Positions 4,118 through 48,180 of a stretch of 48,296 bases of DNA are shown piece after piece (within the stretch, counting starts at the first letter, position 1; each line of letters begins with the position of its first letter). The DNA comes from Candidatus Moraniibacteriota bacterium. GTDB taxonomy: Bacteria > Patescibacteriota > Minisyncoccia > Moranbacterales > JAPLXC01. The stretch spans positions 1 to 48,296 of the forward strand of contig JAPLXC010000011.1 of the NCBI GenBank assembly GCA_026396275.1. Reading direction: 5' to 3'. Made by a program: the position numbers and the translations under genes. The notes beneath the pieces were generated by a model, which was not told the DNA's origin, made no database searches, and saw nothing but the letters and a program-made list of their open reading frames with translations.

Positions 4118-4118
4118 T

Positions 4119-4146
4119 TGTTATATGTTACATGTTTCATGTTATA
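4119..4146. repeat. Four 7-bp units TGTTATA/TGTTACA/TGTTTCA/TGTTATA filling the wzm-wzt spacer
   Basis: Read directly from sequence. Confidence 0.9.
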
Positions 4147-4150
4147 TGAC

Positions 4151-5273: not shown

Positions 5274-5301
5274 TGCTACATGTTCCATGCTTCATGCTAC
5301 A
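5274..5301. repeat. Four 7-bp units TGCTACA/TGTTCCA/TGCTTCA/TGCTACA spanning the epimerase stop codon
   Basis: Read directly from sequence. Confidence 0.9.
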
Positions 5302-6248
5302 TGATAGTATTCCTTATACCAATCCACAAACTTCTCAATTCCCTCCTCTATCCTCGTTTTCGGCTTCCAGCCGAGTTTGCGGAGTTTTTTGACATCCGCC
5401 ACTGTCATCGGAACATCTCCGGGCTGGATGGGCAAAAATCTCTTTTTGGCTTTTTTCCCCACGGCTTTTTCAATTACCTCAATAAAACGGGTTAGTTTTT
5501 CCGGCTTGTCCGCTCCGATATTGACGATTTCGTAGCGAAAATTTTTGTCTAGCACCTTGATAGTCCCGTCAACAATATCATCAATATAAGTGAAGTCGCG
5601 CATCATTTTGCCGTAATTGTAAACGTCAATTGTCTTTCCTTCCAGTATATTTTTCGTAAACTTAAAATAGGCCATATCCGGCCGTCCCCAGGGTCCATAA
5701 ACGGTAAAAAAGCGAAGGCAGGTGATCCTAAGCCCGTATAAATGGCTGTAAACGTGCGCCAGGAGTTCGCCGGCTTTTTTGGTGGCAGCATAGGAAGAAA
5801 CGGGATTGTCCACTCTGTCGTCTTCCAAGAAAGGAACTTTTTTATTTCCGCCGTAGACCGAAGAAGAGGAAGCGAAAACAAAATTTTTAATTTTGTGCTT
5901 TACCGCCAGTTCCAGCAGATTAACCGTTCCCTTAATGTTTACTTCTTCGTAAAGAAGGGGTTTGAGAATTGAATAGCGCACTCCCGCCATCGCGGCCAGA
6001 TGGACCACTTTGTCGGGTCTTTCTTTTCTAAATACTTTCTCCAAAAAACCATAGTCCCGAATATCGCCTTTATAAAGATTGAATTTTTTCCCGGAAAGCA
6101 AGTTTTTTACCCGGTCGTGCTTAAGAGAAGGATCGTAATAATCATTAAAATTGTCGACTATCGCAACTTTGTCTCCTCTTTCAATTAGCTTTTTGGCCAG
6201 ATGGCAACCGATAAATCCAGCTCCTCCGGTGATTAAAATTTTTGCCAT
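5292..6248 (-). CDS. NAD-dependent nucleotide-sugar epimerase (UDP-glucuronate 4-epimerase-like SDR); start revised to ATG 6248
   Basis: ILITGGAGFIG, YAATKK catalytic motif, LRFFTVYGPWGRPDMA, QPGDV. Confidence 0.9.
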   Translation of the reverse strand: MAKILITGGAGFIGCHLAKKLIERGDKVAIVDNFNDYYDPSLKHDRVKNLLSGKKFNLYKGDIRDYGFLEKVFRKERPDKVVHLAAMAGVRYSILKPLLYEEVNIKGTVNLLELAVKHKIKNFVFASSSSVYGGNKKVPFLEDDRVDNPVSSYAATKKAGELLAHVYSHLYGLRITCLRFFTVYGPWGRPDMAYFKFTKNILEGKTIDVYNYGKMMRDFTYIDDIVDGTIKVLDKNFRYEIVNIGADKPEKLTRFIEVIEKAVGKKAKKRFLPIQPGDVPMTVADVKKLRKLGWKPKTRIEEGIEKFVDWYKEYYHVA

Positions 6249-12560: not shown

Positions 12561-15017
12561 TTAATTCTCGGTGGAAACCTTTATCACTTCCCCTTTCTTC
12601 ACTTTTCCGGCAATCATTTCTTTGGCTACCAGATCCTCAATCTTGTCTTCCACGTGGCGCTGGAGGGACCTGGCTCCAAAAATAGGATCATAACCGGAGC
12701 TTATTACTTTATCCACCACTCCGTCATCAAATTCTATTTCTATATTCTTTTCTTCCTGCAGGCGCCTGGCGAATTTCTTCATTATCATCTGCGCGACACT
12801 CCGCAGCACGTTGCCCTCAAGCGGCTGAAAAAAGATGATGTCATCAAAGCGATTAAGAAGCTCCAAGCGAAAGATGCCATTTGCAACCACATAGTCGATA
12901 AGCTTTTTCTTGATTTCTTCCGGTTCCCTTCCCTCCTCTATCATATTCTTGATAAGCGGCGCTCCGGCGTTAGAAGTGGCAATGACAATAATGTTGCGGA
13001 AACTGATTTTTTCCCCAAAAGCATCCGTTACATATCCTTCATCCAGAATCTGTAAAAATATGTCTAAAACATTCGGATAGGCCTTCTCAACTTCGTCCAA
13101 AAGAAGTAAAGAAAACGGATGATCCTTGACGGCGGAAGTAAGTCGGCCGGGCTGATTCAGCTCGCTGGACCCGATTAGCCGGTCAAGGGACGTTGGGCTT
13201 TGAAATTCGCTCATATCCAGCCGGATCATTTTTTCTTCACCTCCATAATAAACCTCAGCCAAGGCCTTGGCGGTCTCCGTCTTTCCCACTCCGGTAGGTC
13301 CTAGAAACAGAAAGCTTCCAACCGGCCGTTGAGTTCTTCCAATGCCGGTTCTGGCCCTTCGCAAGGCCTCAGCCACCTGGCGAACGGCCTCTTCCTGACC
13401 TATTACTCGTCGATGGAGAAACTCTTCAAGATTGAGAAGTTTTCCTCTTTCTTCCTGACGCACTTCCCCGTGGGGCATTCCTGTCTTTAGCTCAAGAAAT
13501 TTATCAACGGTTTCGGTAGTAATAAAATAAGTTCCCGGATTTTTTTGCCAGAATATCAGCACTTCCATCGCCAGATCAAGAGCCCGTTCCGGCAAAGGAA
13601 CTTCCCAATGATACCGGCCGGATGATGCAACAATATACTGAATGGCTTTGAGCGTAAATACAACTCTTCTTTCCTCCATTTTTTCAAAATCCTGAAGCAG
13701 TATTTCCAGTGTTTCCTGCTCGGTCGGCTCTTTCATTTCCACTACCTCAAGGTATTTCATAAACTGCTCATGTTTTTCAACCAGATTGTGATATTCTTTT
13801 TGCGTCGAGGTGGCAATAACCCTAAAGCTTGGCAATGCCAGATACTGACTCATTACCGCTGAGATATCAGGATGAAACATGCTGTCTCCTTTTCCTAAAT
13901 AATTCTCAATATTTTCAAGAAACAAAATCACGTTTCCCGCATAAGCTGCTTCATGAAACATCGCGTGAAGAACATTATCAACATCTTTTCCCTCGCTCAA
14001 AACATTGGAAATAACTCTGCCAATATCAAACAATAAAATTCGGCTGTCGCTGAGCAGGTAATCAATTTGGCCGTGGCGAATAAGTCCGGCAAGATAATGA
14101 ACTAAATTTTTCTTTCCCGATCCCGAATCCCCTACTAAAAGGGTGCTGCTTTGAACCGGACGCATCAAAACCAACTTGACCACTTCTAATTCTTCCTGCC
14201 GGCCGATAAGTTCCCGGCCGCAATACTCCGTCGGATCTACCCGAGAAAGATCAGTCGCATATTCATCGAGGTGGGGAGTATAAGCATAGGCCCAGTGTTT
14301 TCCGATTGGTGATATTTTATCCAGATTTTCCTTGAGCCAGAACTTTTTCTTGTTTTCTTTTTTTTGTCTCGCTCCTGCTTCCCAAGCGACAATCATTTCA
14401 AAATCCCCGCTGTTTAAATCCAGCGATTTCAGAAAAGAAGCTAGTGACTTAGAATTTTCAAAAATATTCTTATTTATTTCCTTTTTCGCCATCCCGAGGC
14501 GGTTAGCGACACGTTCAAGCCACTTTTTCTTGAATAATTCTTTGGCGCTCATTTGGATATAAGGAATCTGAAGCGAGTCGTGATAGAGAAGATAAAAAAG
14601 GAGGCCAAAAAGAAACAAGACCAGCGCCTCAAGCTGCGCCATTACGCTTCCTGCTATTGCTTTAGCCAAAACTAATAAAAAAAGGATTGGCCAGGAAAGC
14701 CAGATAAAAAGCAGTATTAGTCCTCCGAGAAAAAAACTGACAGTTACAACCAGGCCGGTTGTGACGACTGCCAAACGCATTAAAAAGCCGATGAAGCGCG
14801 AAAAAAAGTTGTCAACCAGAATTTCCAGTGATTTTAAAGGTTTCCATCCAAGCCAATAGCGAAAAACTACGTCTCTTTTCCAAGGAGAAAAAAGAGTGGC
14901 AGTGAGTTTAGTCATCGAGAAATAGCGCCAAAAAAAAGAAAGAAGATTTTTCCAGATTTCCAGAAATTCACTTATTCCCCTACTCCAATACCAGACAAAA
15001 AAATTGTCTTTTTTCAT
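12561..15017 (-). CDS. ClpA/B-family AAA+ ATPase with N-terminal membrane anchor and degenerate first NBD
   Basis: NBD2 FLFLGPTGVGKT, LLLLDEVEKA, GARSL; NBD1 GDSGSGKK / ILFLENIE; hydrophobic residues ~80-145. Confidence 0.85.
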   Translation of the reverse strand: MKKDNFFVWYWSRGISEFLEIWKNLLSFFWRYFSMTKLTATLFSPWKRDVVFRYWLGWKPLKSLEILVDNFFSRFIGFLMRLAVVTTGLVVTVSFFLGGLILLFIWLSWPILFLLVLAKAIAGSVMAQLEALVLFLFGLLFYLLYHDSLQIPYIQMSAKELFKKKWLERVANRLGMAKKEINKNIFENSKSLASFLKSLDLNSGDFEMIVAWEAGARQKKENKKKFWLKENLDKISPIGKHWAYAYTPHLDEYATDLSRVDPTEYCGRELIGRQEELEVVKLVLMRPVQSSTLLVGDSGSGKKNLVHYLAGLIRHGQIDYLLSDSRILLFDIGRVISNVLSEGKDVDNVLHAMFHEAAYAGNVILFLENIENYLGKGDSMFHPDISAVMSQYLALPSFRVIATSTQKEYHNLVEKHEQFMKYLEVVEMKEPTEQETLEILLQDFEKMEERRVVFTLKAIQYIVASSGRYHWEVPLPERALDLAMEVLIFWQKNPGTYFITTETVDKFLELKTGMPHGEVRQEERGKLLNLEEFLHRRVIGQEEAVRQVAEALRRARTGIGRTQRPVGSFLFLGPTGVGKTETAKALAEVYYGGEEKMIRLDMSEFQSPTSLDRLIGSSELNQPGRLTSAVKDHPFSLLLLDEVEKAYPNVLDIFLQILDEGYVTDAFGEKISFRNIIVIATSNAGAPLIKNMIEEGREPEEIKKKLIDYVVANGIFRLELLNRFDDIIFFQPLEGNVLRSVAQMIMKKFARRLQEEKNIEIEFDDGVVDKVISSGYDPIFGARSLQRHVEDKIEDLVAKEMIAGKVKKGEVIKVSTEN

Positions 15018-20375: not shown

Positions 20376-21296
20376 TTACACTTTCAGATATCTTCTAATC
20401 GCAATAAAACCACTGACTATTCCCAAAATTATTCCCGACGCGAAAAGGAACAGCGCGATCAGCCCGAAATACTGGAAATAAAGCGATTCCACACTCGCTC
20501 CAGCCATAATTTTTTGGATAATGGGATCCGTAAAAGCAACAGTGATAAAAAGCAAAAGAAGCGCGCCGACGGCGGAGAAAAGTCCATATAATATCCCTTC
20601 GAAGACATACGGCATCCGCACATACATGTTGGAGGCGCCAACGAGGCGCATAATTTCAAATTCCTGCCGGTGCGAATAAATAGTCAGACGAATGGTATTA
20701 AAGGTAATCAGCACAGCGATAATTATAAAAATGGATCCCAGCACGAACCCGACTCTTTCCGCGAGGCGTATCAGATTATTAAGCCGTTCAATAGCCGTCC
20801 TGTTTTTTTCATAATTAATCCGGCTTATCTCCTCTCGAAAATTCGACTGCTCAATAGCTTGAGCGATGATTCCGTATTGTTCCGACTGATGCGCCCTGAT
20901 GACAAGGGCTGCCAGCAAGGGGTTCTCCCCTATTTCCTCCAGCGCCTGGGTAATGGAAGGGTCATTGTTTCCGCTGGCCAAAAATTCTTTGAGCGCTTGA
21001 TCTTTCGAAACATAATCAATTGATTTAATTTCCCGATAGCCAGTGAGTTTATCTTTGATTTCCAGAATTCTTTCTTCTTTTACCTCTGGATTAAAATAAA
21101 TACTGACGTTTATCTTGTCCTCAACGCTTTTCAAAATGGAGTCGGTGGAAATCCCGACTAGAATAGTAATGCTCAAAATATAAAGGGAGATGGTCAGGAT
21201 GCTGACTGTCGCAAAACTCAGCCAGCCGTTGCGGTAAAAATTTTTCAGCCCTTCTTTAAACGTTCTCCAGAGTTTTAATAGCTTTGTGCGTTTCAT
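20376..21296 (-). CDS. ftsX: Cell division permease FtsX
   Basis: RN.WLS, NTIRLTIYSHRQEFEIMRLVGA; overlaps ftsE stop. Confidence 0.93.
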   Translation of the reverse strand: MKRTKLLKLWRTFKEGLKNFYRNGWLSFATVSILTISLYILSITILVGISTDSILKSVEDKINVSIYFNPEVKEERILEIKDKLTGYREIKSIDYVSKDQALKEFLASGNNDPSITQALEEIGENPLLAALVIRAHQSEQYGIIAQAIEQSNFREEISRINYEKNRTAIERLNNLIRLAERVGFVLGSIFIIIAVLITFNTIRLTIYSHRQEFEIMRLVGASNMYVRMPYVFEGILYGLFSAVGALLLLFITVAFTDPIIQKIMAGASVESLYFQYFGLIALFLFASGIILGIVSGFIAIRRYLKV

Positions 21297-24466: not shown

Positions 24467-24505
24467 AAGCTCCTACAAATTACAAATTATTTAAGCGTGA
24501 TAATT

Positions 24506-24537
24506 TTTACTACAGTATACTGAAATACTGTAGTAAA
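24506..24537. promoter_or_regulatory. 13-bp perfect inverted repeat upstream of the rubrerythrin gene
   Basis: TTTACTACAGTAT-ACTGAA-ATACTGTAGTAAA. Confidence 0.4.
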
Positions 24538-24576
24538 TTACTTTTAATTAAAGTGCATTGCCCCGCCAGATCTTTG

Positions 24577-24649
24577 AGCCCACGGTCAGGATTGAACTGA
24601 CGACCTATGCGTTACGAATGCATCGCTCTACCAACTGAGCTACGTGGGC
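24577..24649 (-). tRNA. tRNA-Thr(CGT)
   Basis: GCCCACG/CGTGGGC acceptor stem, anticodon loop TTCGTAA, T-loop TTCAATC; CCA not encoded. Confidence 0.95.
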
Positions 24650-24667
24650 AGTTTAATCATTATAACG

Positions 24668-25573
24668 CTATTTTTTACTTTTATCAAGAAGTTCCTTCCA
24701 TCTCTCATCCACCATTCCCTGAATCTTTTCAATGACCTTCTTATTTTCCGGCTTAAATAAATGCTTGAATCTTCCCTGGGTTTTCAAAAATTCTTCCACC
24801 GGTTTCGGACTTTTAGGTAAGTAATTAATTACGTATCTCCTTTTTTCTATTTCATAAAGCGGCCAGAAATTGGTTTCTGTTGCCAGCCGGCCGACATTCA
24901 CGTATTGCGAAGTGGGAAATTTCCACAAATTAGTGCAGGGCTGAAGGACCAATAAAAATGCCGGTCCTTCTGTCGCTAAGGCCTTTTTAGCTTTTTGCTC
25001 TAAATCTTCAAGATAAGCCACATTGGCTTGGGCCGCGTATTTCACGTGATGGGCATCCACAATTTGCATGATATCTTTCCGGGTGAGTTCATTTCCGATA
25101 TCATGCACTCCAAACGGCGTGGTTTCTGTTGAAGCGCCGTATGGCGAGGCGCTTGATCGCTGGCCACCGGTGTTCATATAGCCCTGATTGTCATAGCAAA
25201 CATAAAGGAAATTATGACCTCGCTCCAGCGCGCCGGAAAGTGATTGCAGGCCAATATCGTATGTTCCACCATCGCCGGCAAAGACGACAATTTTAGCTTG
25301 TCTCTTTACCTTTCCTTTTTTTAGTAGCACCTTCTGGGCAGATTCTATTCCTGATGCAGTCACTGCCGCGTTTTCAAAGGCGTTGTGGATATAAGGTACT
25401 CTCCAGGCAGTATATGGATAAAGCGTTGTAGTTACCTCACCACACCCGGTAGCATTGGCTACAATTACCGGCTTATCGGTTGCCCCAAGAACCGTTCTGA
25501 AAATCGCCGGAATTCCGCATCCGGCGCAAGTGCTGTGCCCGGGAGCCAATTTTTCAGTTAGTTTTTTGTTCAT
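24668..25573 (-). CDS. porB: Pyruvate:ferredoxin oxidoreductase beta subunit
   Basis: CAGCG, NATGC, GDGG...DIGLQ, YDNQGYMNTGGQ, PC. Confidence 0.92.
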   Translation of the reverse strand: MNKKLTEKLAPGHSTCAGCGIPAIFRTVLGATDKPVIVANATGCGEVTTTLYPYTAWRVPYIHNAFENAAVTASGIESAQKVLLKKGKVKRQAKIVVFAGDGGTYDIGLQSLSGALERGHNFLYVCYDNQGYMNTGGQRSSASPYGASTETTPFGVHDIGNELTRKDIMQIVDAHHVKYAAQANVAYLEDLEQKAKKALATEGPAFLLVLQPCTNLWKFPTSQYVNVGRLATETNFWPLYEIEKRRYVINYLPKSPKPVEEFLKTQGRFKHLFKPENKKVIEKIQGMVDERWKELLDKSKK

Positions 25574-25582
25574 GAGATTCTC

Positions 25583-25615
25583 TACGAATTACGAATTGTG
25601 TACGAATATACGAAT
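25583..25615. repeat. TACGAAT x4 module (2 units, 4 nt, unit, 1 nt, unit)
   Basis: Exact copies at 25583, 25590, 25601, 25609. Confidence 0.92.
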
Positions 25616-25620
25616 ATCGC

Positions 25621-26829
25621 TTAATTTTTATTTCCTATATATCTAATTTCACCGGCTTTATCTCCATCAGCTAAATCTTCAAAAACTTCTTCAATATCTT
25701 TTTGAAAAATTTCCCGGCCGCCAAGACCGTAAACGTAGGATTGTATAAAGTATTTTGTATCATGTATAAAGTATGATTTATTTTTATTTATACTTGATAC
25801 TTGATACATGCTATTTAATACTTCTTGATAAATTGGCGGGTGAGTTCCCGGCGAAAGCGCGCGGTCTAAAACAGCAATACCCTTGGCGTTTTTGATAACC
25901 CTGGCAATCTCTTTATAAGGAAACGGGCGAAAGAGCTTGATTTTCACCAATCCCGCTTTTATCCCTTGAGAGCGAAGATTGTCTGCTGCCACTTTTATCG
26001 TCCCGGCAGTCGAGCCCGCCGCGACAATAACATAATCCGCAGTTGCGACCCGATAACTTTCCAATAAATCATAATGCCTTCCGGAAATACGCTTAAATTC
26101 AGCGGCAATCTTTTGATATTCTCCAAAAACGTTTTGCATCGCTTCTTCCTGGCCTTTTTTGAATTCAAAATAAGAATTGGGAAGTGCCACCGGTCCGAAA
26201 GTCACCGGATCGGAAATATTCAAAAGATATTTTTCCGGCTGGTATTCCCCGACAAATTTTTTTACGATATTGTCCGGCAGAATCTCCAAATTTTCCACGC
26301 TATGCGATGTAATAAACCCATCCATTACAACCATTACGGGAAGTTTCATAATTTCTGCCAGTTTCATGCCGATCAGGGTATTATCATACGCTTCCTGGAC
26401 ATTCTCCGAAAAAATTTGAATCCAGCCGGCGTCGCGCGCTCCCATAACATCACTGTGGTCGCAGTGGATATTAATCGGAGCGGAGAGAGCTCGGGCGGAA
26501 ACCAGCATCAGAATCGGAAGGCGAAGGCCGCTGGCGATATAAAGAACTTCATTCATTAGGGCCAATCCCTGGGAACTGGTCGCTGTCACCGTGCGTGCTC
26601 CCGCAGCCGACGCACCCACGCAGGCGCTCATCATAGAATGTTCCGATTCCACCGGAATGATTTCTGTGCCTACTAACGCTTCAGCCTGAAATTTAGCAAA
26701 GGTCTCAATAATCGGTGTCTGGGGAGTGATCGGATAAACCGGCATCACATCCGGATCAATCTGCCGCAGGGCCTCGGCCGCTGCTGCTCCACCCGTCAAC
26801 GCTACACGTTTTTTAGTATTATGTATCAT
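25621..26829 (-). CDS. porA: Pyruvate:ferredoxin oxidoreductase alpha subunit
   Basis: YPITPQT, VESEH, TATSSQGL, YGLGGR. Confidence 0.93.
   Translation of the reverse strand: MIHNTKKRVALTGGAAAAEALRQIDPDVMPVYPITPQTPIIETFAKFQAEALVGTEIIPVESEHSMMSACVGASAAGARTVTATSSQGLALMNEVLYIASGLRLPILMLVSARALSAPINIHCDHSDVMGARDAGWIQIFSENVQEAYDNTLIGMKLAEIMKLPVMVVMDGFITSHSVENLEILPDNIVKKFVGEYQPEKYLLNISDPVTFGPVALPNSYFEFKKGQEEAMQNVFGEYQKIAAEFKRISGRHYDLLESYRVATADYVIVAAGSTAGTIKVAADNLRSQGIKAGLVKIKLFRPFPYKEIARVIKNAKGIAVLDRALSPGTHPPIYQEVLNSMYQVSSINKNKSYFIHDTKYFIQSYVYGLGGREIFQKDIEEVFEDLADGDKAGEIRYIGNKN
25743..25807. repeat. Inverted heptamer tract inside porA (5 x GTATnnn, then 3 x nnnATAC)
   Basis: Read directly from sequence. 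Confidence 0.85.
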
Positions 26830-26840
26830 GTACTAGTAAT

Positions 26841-27116
26841 TTATTCTTTAATCATTACTATCGCCTTTTGCGGGCATTCTGCTGCACAAACCCCGCATCC
26901 TTTGCAAAAATCGTAATCAATTTCCGCCACTTTTTTATTCTTTGCTGCTTGTCGCTTATCGCTTGCCGCTAATTCTATAGCTGCTTCCGGACAATATTTA
27001 ACACACGTGCCGCAGCCGACGCACTTTTTTTTGTTCACTACTGGCTTCATATACCGCCAATTGCCGGTTCGCGGAGCTTTTTCTATGTTGTGTTTTATGA
27101 CTGCATCTTGTTCCAT
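26841..27116 (-). CDS. porD: Pyruvate:ferredoxin oxidoreductase delta subunit (2x[4Fe-4S])
   Basis: TGNWRYMKP, CVGCGTC...CP, CKGCGVC...CP. Confidence 0.93.
   Translation of the reverse strand: MEQDAVIKHNIEKAPRTGNWRYMKPVVNKKKCVGCGTCVKYCPEAAIELAASDKRQAAKNKKVAEIDYDFCKGCGVCAAECPQKAIVMIKE
26944..26971. repeat. Four 7-bp nnnGCTT units inside porD
   Basis: GCTGCTT GTCGCTT ATCGCTT GCCGCTA. Confidence 0.8.
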
Positions 27117-27121
27117 GTGTT

Positions 27122-27183
27122 TCTTTACTAATTACGAATTTATTTACTAAGTATATTCGTACTTGATTAGTAATTCGTAAAGA
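27122..27183. repeat. Inverted TACNAAT / ATTNGTA heptamer pair filling the porC-porD spacer
   Basis: TACTAAT TACGAAT ... ATTAGTA ATTCGTA. Confidence 0.85.
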
Positions 27184-27756
27184 TCAAATCGCGTCATATC
27201 CTTCCTGAATCGCTCTTACATTTTTCTCTGTCATTTCTTTCCCGATCTTCTTTTCAAAAATTTTTCTAAACTCGTGAGTTATACTTTCCAGTTTGACTAC
27301 CTCGGTAATCTGAACAATTTTCCCCAGGACTACCGAATTGGTATTCGGCTGGCCAATGACTGCAAGCGCCAGTCCCGTCGCGTCAATGGGATAAATTCTC
27401 CCTTGAAAGTTCTTTACCATTTGCGCTATTTCTTCTCTGTTTCTCTTAGTATTAATTATTAATGACTCGTGGCGGTCCAAATTTTCCGCTACTTTTTCAC
27501 TTCCTAAAAGAGTTTCATCCAAAACTACCACCGCGTCCGGGTCAATTACCGGCTCGTGAGTCCTGATTGGTTCGGAAGAGACGCGAACATAAGCTCTCGT
27601 CGGAGCGCCACTTCTTTCCGGCCCGAAAAAAGGGAAGGCCTGAACATATTTTCCCTCCCTAACTGCTGCTTGAACAATAATTTCAGCAGCGGTTTTGGCT
27701 CCTTGTCCCGCTCGCGCAAAAAAGATAATTTCAAAAGTGTCTTTGTTAAACTTCAT
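27184..27756 (-). CDS. porC: Pyruvate:ferredoxin oxidoreductase gamma subunit
   Basis: RAGQGAKT, FGPERSGAP, IDATGLA. Confidence 0.92.
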   Translation of the reverse strand: MKFNKDTFEIIFFARAGQGAKTAAEIIVQAAVREGKYVQAFPFFGPERSGAPTRAYVRVSSEPIRTHEPVIDPDAVVVLDETLLGSEKVAENLDRHESLIINTKRNREEIAQMVKNFQGRIYPIDATGLALAVIGQPNTNSVVLGKIVQITEVVKLESITHEFRKIFEKKIGKEMTEKNVRAIQEGYDAI

Positions 27757-27764
27757 GATTTCCC

Positions 27765-27878
27765 TACTAATTACTAATCATATACTAATATACGAATAAA
27801 TAAATTATAACATAATTGCCTTAAAATTTAAAATATACGCTAAAAATTAGTATATTTGTATGTGATTAGTATTTAGTA
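27765..27878. repeat. 33-bp imperfect inverted heptamer modules enclosing an extended -10 (TGTTATAAT, minus strand)
   Basis: TACTAAT TACTAAT cata TACTAAT a TACGAAT ... ATTAGTA t ATTTGTA tgtg ATTAGTA TTTAGTA. Confidence 0.85.
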
Positions 27879-27883
27879 GACAT

Positions 27884-27918
27884 AACAAAAGAGGCGGGCA
27901 CTTTGATTTCCCCGCCTC
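27884..27918 (-). terminator. Intrinsic terminator downstream of the DsbA-like gene
   Basis: GAGGCGGG/CCCGCCTC stem followed by TTTTGTT on the minus strand. Confidence 0.65.
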
Positions 27919-27948
27919 CTGATAGATATTACTGAAAAATGATCTTGC

Positions 27949-29007
27949 TTATTTCGCCAGCTGCTCGTCAATTAATTTCTTTATCTCATCATACGCAATC
28001 ACTCCGTTCATAAACTGATCATTGATGAAAGTTGAGGGAGTTCCTCCAATTCCGAAGCTTCTCGCTTCTTCTTTATCCCGATTCACTTTATCCTGATATT
28101 TCTTGCTGTCCAGACACTGATTAAACTGGGAGGAATTTAGGCCGAGTTGAAGCGCGTAGCTCTTGAATTTTTGCGTTCCCTCCAACTTGCCCCAATTACT
28201 CTGGTCCTCAAATAATTTATCAACATACGGCAATGACTTACCCTGCTCATTGGCGCATTCGGAAGCAAGGGCCGCGTTTTCCGCCTGCAAGTGGAATTCC
28301 AGCGGAAATTGCTTATAGACAAACAATATTTTGTCTCCATAGTCCCTGATTGCCTTGCTTATGGAGTTTAAGTGAAAAGCCCGGCAATAAGGGCACTGAA
28401 AATCGGAAAATTCAACAATTTTTACTTTTGCCTCTTTATTTCCGACTTGGATGTCATTCTCAGAAATTGAGGGGATTTCAAGATATTTTCCCGGCTGCAG
28501 TCCCAGTTCCGCTGTGCGCAACAGGAACTGGTTATTTTTCTTTTCAAATAGAGCACTGGCTTGCTGGTAAAAATCGGTCTTTTCCACGTCAGACGAAAAT
28601 ATAAAAGCTGGAACGGTTTTGACACCGGTTTTAGCTATCAGATCTTTTCCTTCGGGTGAGTTTAGATCAACTTTTTGAGTCAGAATTGTGGGAACAACCC
28701 TACGGAGCCACACCAGCGCCTGGTCCGGCTGGCAATTTTCGCAACTGTCGTCGGTAATCACCTGGATTTTCACAATCGGCTCGGAATAAGCCACCCAGGT
28801 TTTCCCGTCCAGAGTAAACACATCTGTTTTATTGAGCACCCGCTGGGAAAATCCATTCCCTTTCAACAGCTGCGCCACATCGACAAAAATACTTCCGATA
28901 AACAAGCCGCCCAAAAGAATAGACAAAGCAATCAGATTTTTTATCTTTTTATCTGCTTCTATCATCTCTTTAGCAGGTGCTTCTTCTATTTTTTTATTTT
29001 CTTCCAT
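27949..29007 (-). CDS. Membrane-anchored DsbA-family thioredoxin-fold protein with extra N-terminal CxxC domain
   Basis: EFSDFQCPYC, GIGGTP; additional CENC. Confidence 0.88.
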   Translation of the reverse strand: MEENKKIEEAPAKEMIEADKKIKNLIALSILLGGLFIGSIFVDVAQLLKGNGFSQRVLNKTDVFTLDGKTWVAYSEPIVKIQVITDDSCENCQPDQALVWLRRVVPTILTQKVDLNSPEGKDLIAKTGVKTVPAFIFSSDVEKTDFYQQASALFEKKNNQFLLRTAELGLQPGKYLEIPSISENDIQVGNKEAKVKIVEFSDFQCPYCRAFHLNSISKAIRDYGDKILFVYKQFPLEFHLQAENAALASECANEQGKSLPYVDKLFEDQSNWGKLEGTQKFKSYALQLGLNSSQFNQCLDSKKYQDKVNRDKEEARSFGIGGTPSTFINDQFMNGVIAYDEIKKLIDEQLAK

Positions 29008-29090
29008 TCTGTAAGTAAAATTTCAACTTAAGCAAAAATTGCCGGAGCGAAATTTATTTAATTATTACAACTTTAATGCGCTGCAAAAAA

Positions 29091-29384
29091 TTATTGTCCG
29101 CAGGATCCATTACCCGCCTGACTTGAGTTTGACTGCTGTCCGGCCTCTGCCTCTGCAGCTAAATTCTTCTGAATCTGGCTGATATCATAGGACTGGCGCA
29201 GAGAAGAGATTTTATAGTCATAAAAACCGACGGTAATCCTCTTTATGGCTTCCGTTTTTATCACCACTCCAAGCAAAAATCCCAGAATTAAAAAAAGGGC
29301 AAGCTCAAAATAGAGATCTTTTTTCTTCTTTGAAAGAGTATTCTTGCTCTCCATAGTGTTAAAGCCAATAATTTTTACCCTCAT
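29091..29384 (-). CDS. Small single-TM hypothetical protein (start uncertain; second Met possible)
   Basis: One hydrophobic segment. Confidence 0.6.
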   Translation of the reverse strand: MRVKIIGFNTMESKNTLSKKKKDLYFELALFLILGFLLGVVIKTEAIKRITVGFYDYKISSLRQSYDISQIQKNLAAEAEAGQQSNSSQAGNGSCGQ

Positions 29385-29481
29385 AGTTTAACATGCCGCC
29401 TCAAACAGCGCAATGTTGACATTTTTCTATTTTTGTGATGTTATTGGTGCTGATGAACAAGAGATGCTTAAAAATATAGCC

Positions 29482-30738
29482 CTACTCTTTCCGCAAAGCT
29501 TCCATTGGACTTAACTGCGATGCCTTCTGCGCCGGATAATATCCAAAAAGAATTCCCACCGCCGCGGAAAAACCGGTGGCAATGAGAACCGATTGCAAGG
29601 TGACGGCAAGCGCTAGATTGAACCCCAGCCGGGCAAAAATCAAAGACAAAAGCGACAAAAACAAAAACCCGAAAATAATTCCCACGATTCCCCCGGCCAG
29701 CGTCACAAAAATCGCTTCCAGCAAAAATTGTTTGAGAATATCTCCTGACCGCGCGCCTACGGCTTTGCGCAGTCCAATTTCAAATGTGCGTTCTACCACC
29801 GCCACATACATAACATTCATAATCCCCACTCCCCCAACCACCAGCGAAATGGAGGTGAGCGCCAAAAGCAAAATATTTATTGTGTTAAAAACCGTGCCGA
29901 TGATATCCTGCACTTCCTTGAGAGATGTGACCGAAAAATCATCCTTGTCCGGATCGGTGATGCCGTGAAGACGGCGCATCGTATCAGTGATGTCCGCCGA
30001 CGTCGCATCCAAAAGATTTTCATCCTGGACCTTGATTATAATATTGCGCAGATAATCTATGCCCAGTATTTTTTTCTGAAGCGTGCGTACCGGCAGATAA
30101 ATCAATTCGTCATAATTCACTACGCCGAATGTCCCGCGTTTTTCCAAGACGCCGACAACTTTGTAATTTTTATTGCCGATTTTTATTTCTTTTCCAATCG
30201 CCCCGGTATCCCCAAAAAAAGTTTGCTTGATATCGGGACCAACGACCACCACCTGAGCTAGACTGCGATCATCGGCCTCTGTGAAAAAATTTCCTTCCGT
30301 CACTTTGACACCGGGATCCGTTTCTAAAACTCCGGCACTGGTTCCAAAAAGTAAAGTGCGCTTTTTCACGCCCTGATAACTGGAAATTTCCTGAGTATAG
30401 TTAGCCGTATACAGCGCCTCTACATTGGGAAGTTTTGCGATAGCATCCGCATCCTCTTGTTTTAAAGTTGTAATCTGAATGCCCATCGCTTGTCCTAAAG
30501 CATTTTGCGTGGAAGTCTTTCCGGTTGCCGGCACTTTAACTTCAACTTGGATCACATCGTTGCCGAAAGTTCCAATTAGATCAAGAATGAAACTTTTAAC
30601 TCCTTGCCCGCTGGACATAATCACAATCACCGAAGTAATCCCAATCACAATTCCGAATAGCGTCAAAACCGTCCGGCCGATGTTGGAACGGAGGTTTTTA
30701 AATGCTAATTTTACTGATAGGATAATTTCGTGGAACAT
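29482..30738 (-). CDS. MacB-like ABC permease
   Basis: [35 protein letters not shown]. Confidence 0.92.
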   Translation of the reverse strand: MFHEIILSVKLAFKNLRSNIGRTVLTLFGIVIGITSVIVIMSSGQGVKSFILDLIGTFGNDVIQVEVKVPATGKTSTQNALGQAMGIQITTLKQEDADAIAKLPNVEALYTANYTQEISSYQGVKKRTLLFGTSAGVLETDPGVKVTEGNFFTEADDRSLAQVVVVGPDIKQTFFGDTGAIGKEIKIGNKNYKVVGVLEKRGTFGVVNYDELIYLPVRTLQKKILGIDYLRNIIIKVQDENLLDATSADITDTMRRLHGITDPDKDDFSVTSLKEVQDIIGTVFNTINILLLALTSISLVVGGVGIMNVMYVAVVERTFEIGLRKAVGARSGDILKQFLLEAIFVTLAGGIVGIIFGFLFLSLLSLIFARLGFNLALAVTLQSVLIATGFSAAVGILFGYYPAQKASQLSPMEALRKE

Positions 30739-30739
30739 A

Positions 30740-31981
30740 TTATTCGTATCTCAACGCCTCCATCGGTGAAACTTTTGCCGCTTTTCTGGCCGGATACATG
30801 CCAAAAATCAAGCCTATTAAAATTGTTACTGTTGTCGCAATGATGATTGATTGTCCGGTAATTAAAAATTGCCAGACATAGCCCAGACGGTTGATAATCA
30901 CCGACGCAAAATAAGACACTAGGATTCCCAAAATGATTCCCAAAATTCCTCCAACTAGAGTAATAAAAACAGATTCTACTAAAAATTGCGTGATAATGCT
31001 GGAATTGCGCGCGCCTACGGCTTTGCGCAAGCCGATTTCGCGGATTCTTTGATTGACCGCGATGAGCATTATATTCATAACTCCCACTCCCCCGACCAGA
31101 AGCGAAATAGCCGCGATTGACGTCAGAAAATATTTCAAAACATCTGTGATGTTAGTCAGTATGGAAAGCGCCTGCGCCGTGGTGCGCACTGAAAAATCGT
31201 CATCGGTTGGATCTTTGATATTATGATTGTTCCGCAGCGTGGTTTTAATGTCCGCGACTGTCTGATTCAAATTTTGCGGATTATTAATCTTAGCCCGGAT
31301 AAAATTAAGATAATCAATTCCCAGGATTAATTTTTGCGCCGTGAAAAGCGGCACAAATATATTCTGGTCGGTGTTGGAGAAACCGGACGATCCTTTTTTC
31401 TCTAAAATTCCGACCACCGTAAAATTCAAATCCTTTATGGTTAGCGTTTTGCCGATTGGATCCTCATTGGGGAAAAAATCTCTGACTCTGTCCGCGCCTA
31501 AAACCACAACCCGCGCCAGATTAGTTTCTTCTTCGGGCATAAAAAATCTGCCTTCTGCCACTTTAATATTCTCTACATTGATCAGCTGCGGGCTTACGCC
31601 CTGGAAAGTCACCGCAAAATTATTGTCCCGATATTCGGCCACAGCCGAACCGGTCACATAGCCGGAAGCATTTACGACATCCGGCACATTGTCCTTGTTT
31701 AAGATCGATTTTAGATCACTATATTTTAGCGTGGTGATGATTGTTCCGAAAACGGTGGCTGGCGGGCCTTTTTCTTCCGATCCGCCCGGCAGAATACCGA
31801 TGAGATTAGAACCGACACCAGACACCTGATCCAGAATCAGCTGTTGCGCGCTGGCTCCTATCGCCATGACAATAATGACCGAGGCCACGCCAATAATAAT
31901 TCCCAGCACAGTCAAAAAAGAGCGCCACTTCGCCGCCATCAGATTTTTGTATGAGATTTTAATAGGATTCCAGAGCGTCAT
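30740..31981 (-). CDS. MacB-like ABC permease
   Basis: [21 protein letters not shown]...[14 protein letters not shown]. Confidence 0.92.
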
Positions 31982-31982
31982 G

Positions 31983-32714
31983 CTATTTTAATAATTCGCC
32001 GTCTTTTGCCACTCTCTTATTTATCACTGGTTCATTAGAAACAATATTTCCATCTTTGACGCGCAAAATTCTCCTTGCGTGTTCGGCGGTAAATGTTTCA
32101 TGTGTGACTAGAATTATTGTGTGTCCTTCATTATTAAGCTCCTGGAAAATTTTCATAATTTGCGTTCCAGTTTTGGAATCAAGATTCCCGGTCGGCTCAT
32201 CGGCAAAAATCACTTCCGGATTCAAAACTAAGGCGCGAGCGATCGCCACTCTTTGTTTTTCACCGCCAGACAATTGGTTGGAAAGATAACCAGCGCGATG
32301 CTCCATAGACACGGCCTTAAGAGCCCGTATAACTTTTTCCGCATTACTTTGCTTGGTCGCTTTTTTTCTGTCATAGAGAAGCGGGAGCTCCACATTTTCA
32401 AAAACAGAAGTTCTCGGCAATAAATTAAAAGTTTGAAAAACAAAACCGATTTTCTGATTGCGCAAATCAGCTAATTCGTCCTCGGTAAACTTGGAAGTGT
32501 TTCGTCCTTCAAACAGATATTCACCATCCGTTGGCCGGTCTAAAAACCCAAGAACCTGCATGAGCGTTGATTTTCCGGAGCCCGATGGCCCCATAATCGC
32601 CACGAATTCGCCTTTATTAATGGTGAATGTGACGCCGCAAACGGCCGGAGTCCTCACACCTTCATTATCATAAGTTTTGCAAAGGTTTTGGACAGAAATT
32701 AGTGAATTTGACAT
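31983..32714 (-). CDS. MacB/LolD-type ABC ATP-binding protein
   Basis: [28 protein letters not shown]. Confidence 0.93.
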
Positions 32715-32726
32715 AAAAAAAATTAA

Positions 32727-32806
32727 CCCGAATTACGAATAATTAACCGAATGTCCCGAATATTTGTCATTCGAATCATTCGAGCAAAAATTCGAGTTAT
32801 TCGAGT
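32727..32806. repeat. Inverted CGAAT / ATTCG repeat tract
   Basis: Four nnCGAAT units, then four ATTCGAR units. Confidence 0.8.
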
Positions 32807-32810
32807 TATC

Positions 32811-46828: not shown

Positions 46829-48180
<1,352 letters not shown>

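Follow-up and report, generated by a model that had tools for sequence, protein, structure and literature searches.

A 33-nt block of four TACNAAT heptamers as the probable arm of a dispersed hairpin cassette family in a Candidatus Moraniibacteriota genome

Heptamer tracts in the por region

The window, which is the whole 48,296-nt stretch of contig JAPLXC010000011.1 that was analysed, carries the por genes, a rubrerythrin gene and tRNA-Thr (the identities of the por subunits, rubrerythrin and tRNA-Thr were confirmed). Tracts of 7-nt units and the features associated with them are found at the following positions:

24474..24487, minus strand: two-unit fragment ATTTGTA ATTTGTA (gene strand), 7 nt before the rubrerythrin ATG
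25579..25615, minus strand: solo arm separating the porA stop from the porB start; exact block match, no fold of its own (z ~0)
25737..25815, minus strand: in-frame period-7 inverted tract of GTATNNN units inside porA; fold z -3 to -5
27117..27183, no strand assigned: compact inverted pair in the porC-porD spacer; fold z -2 to -4
27761..27797, minus strand: gene-proximal arm upstream of porC; exact match, pairs with 27846-27882 (hairpin z -6 to -9)
27798..27845, minus strand: 48-nt loop of the porC element, with a promoter-like TTTAAA-17-TATAAT and TG extension at 27832-27804 (10/12 matches)
27846..27882, minus strand: distal arm upstream of porC; differs from the block at one position
32715..32810, no strand assigned: divergent hairpin with CCGAAT/TACGAAT versus ATTCGAA/ATTCGAG units; fold z -4 to -5

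The block common to these arms has 33 nt and consists of TACNAAT, TACNAAT, 4 nt, TACNAAT, 1 nt and TACNAAT (layout 7+7+4+7+1+7; 24 specified bases). It reads TACGAAT TACGAAT TGTG TACGAAT A TACGAAT at 25583-25615, 9 nt from the porB ATG (25573, minus strand), and TACTAAT TACTAAT CATA TACTAAT A TACGAAT at 27765-27797, 8 nt before the porC ATG (27756), or 4 nt when GGGA is counted. The original prediction had placed this 33-bp architecture near the two starts and all its coordinates check out. The true arm is 37 nt long, as the block is accompanied by an outer TCTT. On the gene strand the solo arm of porB is thus read as ATTCGTA-T-ATTCGTA-CACA-ATTCGTA-ATTCGTA-GAGA, followed by ATCTC and the ATG.

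Upstream of porC a mirror-image module had been proposed to enclose an extended −10. The reverse complement of the block is indeed found at 27846-27878, with its single mismatch, and the promoter-like site lies between the two arms. The distal arm (TACTAAA TACTAAT CACA TACAAAT A TACTAAT on the gene strand) is positioned directly downstream of the terminator-like hairpin of a DsbA-like gene. Judging from the promoter-like sequence, the porC transcript would start at about position 27797, where the proximal arm begins. A TGnTATAAT sequence lies ~7 nt before the porC start codon in several relatives.

Among the further tracts regarded as related, those at 24474 and 27126-27179 belong here: the rubrerythrin fragment has only the outer two units of an arm, and the porC-porD pair has the order TGA-TCTT-arm / overlapping degenerate second arm-AAGA-AACAC-ATG. 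The third one (32727-32806) has a related build but divergent units; its hairpin spans the spacer from the stop of the HlyD-like gene to the start of the ABC ATPase gene and is not a member of the block family at ≤4 mismatches. The porA tract, in which tandem arrays were detected by TRF at 25743-25774 and 25790-25823, is of the same repeat class with a different unit family. In the protein it corresponds to 12 residues inserted into a variable loop, an insertion lacking in 19/19 aligned relatives.

Copy number and conservation of the block

The 0.81-Mb genome has 31 exact and 16 near copies of the block at ~35 loci, all of them intergenic (none inside ORFs, though 85% of the genome is coding). 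Within the window the TACNAAT double unit occurs 7 times versus 0.5 expected. A scan for periodic tracts revealed a genome-wide excess of period 7, both among exact two-copy tandems (220 versus 51 for period 8) and among TRF arrays (415 of period 7, 167 of period 8 and 91 of period 5); the copy number of the period-7 arrays peaks at four. These head-to-tail 7-nt units, intergenic and near gene ends, have the character of heptamer simple sequence repeats. Slippage-type variation in the number of units was not seen, as practically every locus, here and in other phyla, keeps the layout 7+7+4+7+1+7.

The genome is AT-rich (~41% GC) and two-copy heptamer tandems are common in it, which would favor chance similarity or local replication slippage at each site. 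This explanation is refuted by the 31 exact matches to 24 specified bases, by the control in which the block was read backwards (0 copies across 41 genomes) and by the breaks of 4 nt and 1 nt, which do not change from one locus to another or in other phyla; its probability is negligible. The earlier view that a module was dispersed, rather than generated by slippage, is borne out by the same architecture at all these loci and in many other genomes. Among the copies the 24 core positions hardly vary (1.7-2.0 bits), while almost no two have the same loops, spacers and N positions. Dead copies undergoing simple neutral decay would not be expected to give this pattern, which points to each copy being under constraint or to an uncharacterised copying process. 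It counts against the mobile interpretation favored below and would be compatible with a role in the host or at the RNA level.

Anatomy of the element and its position between genes

The arms occur as outward-facing inverted pairs that form an imperfect palindrome with a loop of usually 7-16 nt. A complete element has the order stop codon, 0-7 nt, TCTT, four-heptamer arm, loop, mirror arm, AAGA (or GAGA/GAC/GCC), 4-10 nt, ATG, and the hairpin thereby spans the gap between the stop codon of one gene and the start of the next. One arm begins 0-7 nt past a stop codon and the other stops 8-10 nt short of an ATG. The unit measures mostly ~80-120 bp and, as in a MITE, terminal inverted repeats surround a short, multi-copy, non-coding segment. 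Long hairpins are predicted for paired arms (z -2 to -9). Because the outer TCTT/AAGA is inverted between the arms, it belongs to the palindrome; no direct repeat indicative of a target duplication was found in the flanks of paired elements, which counts against a mobile origin. The element is found in either orientation. Each copy combines one arm with a C-type spacer and one with a T-type spacer (39/47 pairs), and the N positions of partner arms are anti-correlated, giving mismatches instead of pairs.

Such a hairpin could be kept in the transcript as an RNA-level device, either for mRNA processing or stability (cleavage by RNase III as in 23S rRNA intervening sequences, or protective stems at the 5′ or 3′ end) or because the stem joins stop codon and ATG and preserves termination-reinitiation coupling. 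The short distances to the stop and to the ATG, repeated at many junctions of two genomes, agree with it, as do the stability of the hairpins on both strands and the ancestral state in relatives, where genes overlap or are closely spaced and coupling is expected; cassettes that share this build and have a PF05635 gene are the intervening sequences known to be cut out by RNase III (PMC4990558). A solo arm, however, has no partner with which to make the stem, and the promoter-like site of porC lies inside the loop, which would leave the distal arm outside the transcript. Structure alone would also not conserve the core sequence, and the anti-correlated N positions create mismatches. We consider this device improbable.

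Solo arms are present in both positions, before start codons and after stop codons. They are found without mismatch 5-10 nt before the ATG of porB, murF, rpmE and mreB, and after the stop codons of secY, pyk, gyrA and ruvB. The genes downstream of arms include those for L10, L24, L3, L17, L36, L31, GroEL, DnaJ, Tig, ClpP, pyruvate kinase, HPF and GatCA, ten of which were confirmed with Pfam. This raises the alternative of a host cis-acting leader, in which the heptamers, lying in the 5′ UTR, would bind either a DNA-binding regulator or a ribosomal or RNA-binding protein similar to S1, Csp or CsrA, and the site would set translation or transcription of a housekeeping regulon. The exact solo arms before start codons and the housekeeping functions agree with it, together with the invariant cores beside free spacers, the pairs that retain an intact gene-proximal arm beside a decayed distal one, the rarity of Shine-Dalgarno motifs in this genome (GGAG 8%, though the 16S rRNA has CCUCC), the predicted porC transcript starting with the arm and a published analogue, the TAACTGA repeats of Beggiatoaceae, for which such a role was proposed (PMC4679880).

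Several observations oppose a leader function. The block adjoins stop codons, in the opposite reading direction and also as solo arms, as often as start codons, because these are the two outward-facing ends of one palindrome. The C- or T-type of the gene-proximal arm has no consistent relation to the downstream gene, sites within operons and close to promoters are both occupied, and the block, which encloses ORFs of selfish appearance, is distributed across phyla. In many relatives the genes in question are expressed with no element or with one built from unrelated heptamers. The notion of a code at translation starts, put forward in the original prediction, is not supported in that form by these results and the use of either orientation; a host leader appears unlikely to us. 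Protein binding to the arms is plausible.

A GxxExxY gene between the arms

Upstream of tig (C2:2784-3245) two TACNAAT arms surround an intact 130-aa ORF (C2:2819-3211) whose start lies 2 nt after the left arm and whose stop lies 1 nt before the right arm. It scores 101 bits against TIGR04256 (cut-off 35) and matches PF13366 with an E-value of 1e-29. The protein model (pLDDT 87.5) matches only PD-(D/E)xK nucleases, namely Cas4, lambda exonuclease, Hjc resolvase, a splicing endonuclease and a homing-endonuclease domain. An alignment of five copies shows no variation at D75 and K87, with E or D just before K87; E36 of the GxxExxY motif is kept in 4/5. The cassette ORF is, on the basis of these profiles and of the model, a GxxExxY (TIGR04256/PF13366) protein of predicted PD-(D/E)xK nuclease fold.

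The association of period-7 tracts with GxxExxY or four-helix-bundle genes, put forward in the original prediction, holds in this genome, as its 4 PF13366 and 3 PF05635 genes are each bracketed by inverted heptamer arms, those of one PF13366 gene, at C2, being the TACNAAT module itself. The window contains no such gene, as had been stated. At the PPase-tig junction of G013, a genome of another family, the same arms are present but the gene is not. TAC[G/A/T]AA[T/A]-type arms border PF13366 cassettes of relatives in families f3-f6, f9 and f11, and at least 3 motif hits were found in 8/25 PF13366 cassettes versus 1/21 PF05635 cassettes. Among 41 genomes, 18 have the module, 18 have PF13366 and 14 have both. 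Gene-bearing cassettes with the same ends also include L258 and would be candidates for the autonomous, transposase-encoding form of a MITE. Two points count against mobility: gene-bearing loci are few (1 of ~35 here, 1/80 elsewhere) and GxxExxY proteins are not known to act as transposases.

Occupancy of orthologous junctions and distribution

Across 19 relatives the por junctions contain nothing, the TACNAAT element, other heptamer hairpins, or PF05635/PF13366 cassettes. In most of them porA and porB overlap or are 0-7 nt apart, while the closest metagenome relative (L055) has a complete arm pair where a solo arm is found here. The porC-porD junction has the same element in G003, G022 and G014, arms with a PF13366 pseudogene in G005 and a 31-nt spacer remnant in G013. 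PF05635 genes are present at por junctions in G032 and G038. Orthologous junctions in relatives, which the original prediction had proposed to check, do carry such genes, and short remnants such as the one in G013 look like traces of internal deletion, in line with the proposed footprints of an excisable element. The junction upstream of mreB is likewise variably occupied.

The comparison, made between families of the order, shows strong differences in the occupancy of orthologous sites. No strain-level pair of filled and empty sites was found among sequences whose nearest members have 69-72% porA identity; this counts against the mobile interpretation, and movement is inferred from deep comparisons only. 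Of the ~34 occupied junctions in G013, 11 are also occupied here (1.5 expected, P = 5.5e-7), and both genomes have a solo arm before mreB. That one third of the junctions is common to two families favors a host leader and could reflect long retention under selection rather than mobility. The exact block was found in at least 120 stretches, from many CPR classes, from Bacteroidia, Sphingobacteriaceae and Omnitrophota contigs, and from one contig of 48% GC.

Comparison with other repeat families

Like MITEs and REP/REPIN-BIMEs, the element is a short, non-coding, intergenic, high-copy palindrome found as inverted doublets and singlets. Its two alternating arm types recall the Y and Z REP types of E. 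coli BIMEs; the putative relation to a single-gene autonomous form (REP doublets are mobilised by RAYT) and the position between convergent or co-directional genes are further similarities. The arms are nevertheless AT-rich and made of four 7-nt units, whereas REPs are 20-40-bp GC-rich stems with a GTAG/CGTC tag (PMC3733652), and the associated gene is a PD-(D/E)xK GxxExxY, not a Y1 or DDE transposase, with no target duplication seen. A REP/REPIN system with RAYT was rejected since GC-rich palindromes (TCGAGGACCGTCCTCGA and GGAGGTTGAACCTCC), not TACNAAT arms, border the genome's two Y1-transposase-like (RAYT-like) genes (C19:3276-3926 and C7:68133-68813).

TAACTGA direct repeats upstream of start codons were described in Beggiatoaceae, Cyanobacteria and Bacteroidetes (MacGregor 2015; PMC4679880). 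They too are tandem 7-nt units, almost all intergenic, in ribosomal-protein operons, with a patchy cross-phylum distribution suggesting horizontal spread (PMC4679880). Those arrays are mainly simple direct repeats whose 2-6 units all point the same way, only one inverted case being described (PMC4679880), whereas the block described here has four fixed units, forms mostly inverted pairs, adjoins stop codons equally and has a gene-bearing form. Period 7 and the preference for four units are shared with the GGGAATC/GGGGAYT heptamers that Rehm et al. (2015; PMC4692102) described in Xanthomonas and Nostoc and with cyanobacterial STRR arrays. So is the location between co-directional genes, where those repeats follow a stop codon by no more than 50 bp when they lie on the sense strand and precede ORFs when they lie on the antisense strand (PMC4692102). 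The G-rich GGGAATC repeats were explained by G-quadruplexes (PMC4692102). The TACNAAT block is AT-rich and cannot form a G-quadruplex, so the shared preference for four units needs another explanation.

Intervening sequences with an S23p ORF are known from the 23S rRNA of Leptospira. Those of Coxiella 23S rRNA contain an S23p/PF05635 four-helix-bundle ORF (PMC4990558). The similarity resides in an inverted-repeat stem around one small ORF of a sporadic multi-copy family, regarded as selfish, and this genome and its relatives have many heptamer-armed PF05635 cassettes, some at por junctions. The TACNAAT block differs by its association with PF13366, not PF05635, and by its location between protein genes, not in rRNA. 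Assignment to the PF05635 type was rejected, as 20/21 PF05635 cassettes, the three of this genome included, have arms of other heptamers.

Integron attC sites and the ends of IS200/IS605 are imperfect palindromes in which unpaired bases give polarity to the folded single strand, and they belong to compact one-gene cassettes. Here no integrase or Y1 transposase is linked to the arms, and sequence is conserved, not structure alone.

A putative mobile hairpin cassette

The interpretation we favor, and hold to be probable, is that the TACNAAT block is the terminal inverted repeat of a dispersed MITE/REPIN-like family of imperfect-palindrome cassettes whose full-length form carries a GxxExxY gene. 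The full-length form would be a one-gene cassette with its loop exactly filled by the gene for a minimal PD-(D/E)xK-fold nuclease, the gene-less copies would be miniature derivatives, and solo arms, such as the one before porB, would remain after loss of the other arm. The element would spread within and between genomes and persist only in the very short intergenic spacers of compact genomes, hence its placement with one end immediately past a stop codon and the other a short distance ahead of a start codon. Through its gene-bearing form, the long-unexplained 7-base repeats of bacteria would be tied to a likely mobile element. We infer that the heptamer cores are what the nuclease recognises, probably when the DNA is folded as a single strand or extruded as a cruciform, that the built-in 4x4 internal loop and the G.A/U.C mismatches mark strand and orientation, and that the nuclease thereby mobilises the cassette by driving its copying or excision. 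By bringing stop and start codons near each other in the mRNA, the stem may prevent the insertion from doing harm.

A broader proposal is more tentative and we put it forward only as a possibility. Heptamer-armed hairpin cassettes may be a widespread, undescribed class of mobile elements in which the minimal GxxExxY nuclease acts on folded arms, the four 7-nt units are its recognition code, internal loop and mismatches mark strand and orientation, and the stem allows placement between stop and start codons without uncoupling translation. If true, the unexplained four-unit period-7 repeats of cyanobacteria, Xanthomonas, Beggiatoaceae and CPR bacteria would have one common origin.

Block Copies in the por Locus

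The window belongs to a genome of 0.81 Mb (22 contigs, ~41% GC) and is its contig C8. The genes from por to rubrerythrin form a single run on the minus strand, and copies of a TACNAAT heptamer block are found within the run (crude ORF calls were used throughout):

27756-27184, minus strand, porC
27116-26841, minus strand, porD
26829-25621, minus strand, porA
25573-24668, minus strand, porB
24649-24576, minus strand, tRNA-Thr
24466-23945, minus strand, rubrerythrin

The 33-nt layout of the original prediction (unit, unit, 4 nt, unit, 1 nt, unit) is present at 25583-25615, 9 nt from the porB start, and at 27765-27797, 8 nt from the porC start. The module described near porC as its mirror image (27846-27878) is indeed a mirror copy, and the −10 placed inside this pair belongs to a promoter-like site (TTTAAA-17-TG-TATAAT) between both copies. 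The tracts thought to be related were identified as a compact inverted pair (27126-27179), a two-unit fragment (24474-24487) and a divergent relative of the block (32727-32806). Genome-wide, the 24 specified bases of the block occur in 31 exact and 16 near copies (≤4 mismatches) while the pattern read backwards has no copy among 41 genomes of the order; the block is thus not a product of chance. A period-7 scan, proposed together with the prediction, revealed a genome-wide excess of this period. TRF arrays have a copy-number peak at four, and 59% of them map outside ORFs, against a non-coding share of only 15% for the genome.

Other hairpins and tracts were observed in the window. A 12-residue in-frame insertion in porA (codons ~339-364; 25737-25815), found in none of 19 aligned relatives, is encoded by a period-7 inverted tract of GTATNNN units folding as a hairpin, which indicates that heptamer hairpins can enter coding sequence too. 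Four-unit tracts of CATNNAA/CATGNNN type lie between the stop codon of an ABC permease and the start of its neighbouring ATPase gene (4118-4150, ending 3 nt before the ATG) and across the end of an epimerase-like ORF (5274-5303). The porD-porA spacer (26830-26840; 11 nt, ATTACTAGTAC) has a palindrome, TACTAGTA, which could, speculatively, be the minimal scar of a lost element. A perfect 13-bp hairpin separates tRNA-Thr from rubrerythrin (24506-24537), and the 3′ part of porB contains a strong promoter-like site (TTGATA-17-TATAAT; 24687-24659) directed towards tRNA-Thr.

Anatomy of the Arm and of the Paired Element

In the orientation of the downstream gene the block has the sequence ATTNGTA-T-ATTNGTA-N4-ATTNGTA-ATTNGTA, and AAGA, GAGA, GAC or GCC comes next; most often an ATG lies 8-10 nt after the block. 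The majority of copies form inverted pairs that face outward around loops of usually 7-16 nt, and either strand of such a pair folds as a long, imperfect hairpin (z −2 to −9), whose stem takes in the outer TCTT...AAGA, so that the arm has 37 nt. At its second end a pair adjoins the preceding gene's stop codon, the typical sequence being TAA/TAG-TCTT-TAC. The position assigned to the module, just before start codons, is therefore correct for one end only: the other end follows stop codons, as do some solo arms (secY, pyk, gyrA, ruvB), while those of porB, murF, rpmE and mreB precede start codons. All 47 arms are found in intergenic DNA though 85% of the genome is coding. Some downstream gene names are our reading of the sequences; ten were confirmed by Pfam.

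Each of the 24 core positions carries 1.7-2.0 bits. G or T occupies the four N positions and C or T the first base of the spacer; the remaining spacer and the loop are nearly free. The element has a polarity: one arm bears a C-type spacer (CAAN/CACN) and the other a T-type spacer (TTTN) in 24 of 29 pairs of this genome and G013 (a genome of another family) and in 15 of 18 pairs of family f4. On one strand the spacers are consequently direct repeats, which makes a 4x4 internal loop. N positions are anti-correlated between the two arms of a pair in this genome and G013 (23/116 identical versus 50.3 +/- 5.2 expected), placing one G.A or U.C mismatch in each run of seven pairs, and in f4 both arms are of G type. 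Co-variation of these positions to preserve pairing was rejected on both grounds.

Further readings of the arm were discarded. The AAGA/GAGA after the block mirrors TCTT/TCTC of the partner arm, and a Shine-Dalgarno site was rejected as its main reading. The 16S rRNA 3′ end (near 46831) has the standard CCUCC anti-Shine-Dalgarno. GGAG or AGGA precedes only ~8-11% of the crude gene starts of the genome, A-rich sequence dominating from −11 to −3; with such motifs rare, the hairpin does not obviously displace a needed site. A promoter carried in the loop is no general rule, most loops having 7-16 nt and only porC fitting in this genome; in G013 both arms follow the promoter. Specificity for highly expressed genes was likewise rejected, as enrichment is only modest and the fpg, ruvB, gyrA and dnaE junctions are occupied too. 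Rfam gave no match at the modules, nor in the sequence following solo arms.

Two arm variants were observed. A GC-rich hairpin (CCACCGCC..GGCGGGGTCCCGC..GCGGGAT type) sits at the identical spot inside the second heptamer of the arm at three loci of this genome:

contig C5, ~960-1040, arm with inserted GC-rich hairpin
contig C14, ~20990-21040, arm with inserted GC-rich hairpin
contig C7, ~12950-13000, arm with inserted GC-rich hairpin

It is either a second hairpin family targeting the arm or part of a composite arm that was copied. In the other variant a small GC hairpin (AAGCGAAGCG) replaces the 4-nt spacer (C7:37459-37491 and C21:32980-33012). G022 and G014 also have this form, both at the porC-porD junction, so the element at that junction is older than the split of their genera.

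Cassettes Enclosing a GxxExxY Gene

An intact ORF of 130 residues (C2:2819-3211) fills the space between two arms at C2:2784-3245, starting 2 nt past the left arm and stopping 1 nt short of the right one; tig starts 10 nt beyond this cassette. The product is a GxxExxY protein (TIGR04256, 101 bits, with a PF13366 match). Alignment of five copies revealed invariant D75 and K87, the latter preceded by an acidic residue. The protein has no match in PDB by sequence. Its structural model, a confident one (pLDDT 87.5), matches solely PD-(D/E)xK nucleases, all weakly (E 7e-5 to 1e-2): Cas4, lambda exonuclease, Hjc resolvase, a splicing endonuclease and a homing-endonuclease domain.

The other three PF13366 genes of this genome and its three PF05635 (four-helix-bundle) genes each lie between inverted short-repeat arms of other units, mostly of period 7. 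Across the 41 genomes, PF13366 cassettes often have arms of TAC[G/A/T]AA[T/A] type, with at least three motif hits in 8/25 versus 1/21 of the PF05635 cassettes (Fisher 0.027, Mann-Whitney 0.003). The module and PF13366 are each found in 18 of these genomes, 14 of them in common. Loops were inspected for remnants of deleted ORFs by eye only; a few start with ATG.

PF05635 (“IVS protein”) genes reach 7-13 copies per ~1-Mb genome in five relatives (G016, G003, G005, G032, G039), each with its own heptamer arms, and some occupy por operon junctions. Two RAYT-like Y1 transposase genes of this genome (C19:3276-3926 and C7:68133-68813; HUH motif, weak NF047646 match) have their own GC-rich palindromes alongside, and TCGAAT/CCGAAT-type tracts near one of them resemble the units at 32727-32806 of the window. 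RAYT was rejected as partner enzyme of the TACNAAT arms since the repeats of these genes differ.

Occupancy of Orthologous Junctions and Distribution

The por junctions were compared among 19 relatives whose porA is 54-72% identical and are extremely variable. Por genes overlap or have spacers of ≤16 nt in several relatives. The porC-porD junction carries a TACNAAT element in G003, G022 and G014, arms with a PF13366 pseudogene in G005, and a 31-nt remnant in G013; in G030 and G032 it is occupied by heptamer hairpins of other kinds or by a PF05635 cassette. The proposed check of orthologous junctions for four-helix-bundle genes thus had a positive outcome, with a further PF05635 cassette at porD-porA in G038. 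At porA-porB a complete pair is present in the closest metagenome contig and only the proximal arm here. Upstream from mreB a solo arm is found in this genome and G013, with unrelated heptamer hairpins or nothing in other relatives. In this genome the element makes structured spacers of ~50-190 nt out of junctions at which relatives have overlapping, closely spaced or apparently leaderless genes.

The porC gene of several relatives (L016, L020, L021, L013, L019) has a TGnTATAAT ~7-9 nt before its start codon, a sequence arrangement suggesting leaderless transcripts. In this genome an arm is inserted behind the porC −10 box and ahead of the ATG, and the leader is predicted to have ~45 nt.

This genome carries arms at 11 of the ~34 junctions occupied in G013, versus 1.5 expected (P = 5.5e-7). 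At these common junctions cores are identical while loops, spacers and N positions are unrelated; the PPase-tig junction of G013 has arms without a gene. An exact-protein look-up of porD found no strain variants on record. The metagenome scan with porA yielded no relative closer than 69% identity, and hence no pair of filled and empty sites.

With ≤1 mismatch allowed, the block is present in 18 of the 41 genomes of the order, the richest of which has 55 copies. When one genome per species was scanned, at least 120 stretches had the block in the same layout, often paired. The matches listed include Moranbacteria, Falkowbacteria, Giovannoni-, Yanofsky-, Komeili- and Berkelbacteria and other Patescibacteria, and also Bacteroidia, Sphingobacteriaceae and Omnitrophota contigs and one contig of 48% GC, some of the MAG labels being possibly wrong. 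Among the first 80 loci of these matches a GxxExxY ORF adjoins the block only once, in a full cassette (L258).

Origin and Possible Role

The simplest account of these sequence data is that TACNAAT elements are probably a family of mobile palindromic cassettes. The arms would be the terminal repeats of the cassette, whose full-length form would be marked by the GxxExxY gene; gene-less pairs and solo arms would be its derivatives. Such elements would live in spacers originally a few bases long, where selection would retain the last bases before the ATG, which may explain their position just before start codons. Spread across phyla and variable occupancy agree with this account. No target duplication was seen at the elements and no known transposase was found.

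Near-perfect cores next to free spacers, and the many junctions common to different families, are unlike decaying dead copies. This would mean either constraint on every copy, from a bound protein or from an RNA or host role, or junctions that are strong hot spots and repeatedly re-colonised. To our knowledge no origin or function has been agreed upon for the seven-base tandem repeats near gene ends (STRR, GGGAATC, TAACTGA), reports of which go back decades. A translational role was proposed for TAACTGA repeats of very similar placement (PMC4679880). G-rich heptamers prefer four units (PMC4692102), as does the TACNAAT block, which lacks G-quadruplex potential. For these reasons a host leader and an RNA hairpin are both retained as live rivals of the mobile-cassette account.

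The present case is unusually sharply defined, with a fixed arm of 33/37 nt and 24 near-invariant positions. Together with a clear full-length form, in which a gene of nuclease fold is present, and the spread across CPR classes and other phyla, this provides a protein and a DNA or RNA hairpin as partners that can be tested. The annotation and interpretation of CPR genomes are affected too, since such elements make up much of what little intergenic DNA they have and even part of porA, in frame.
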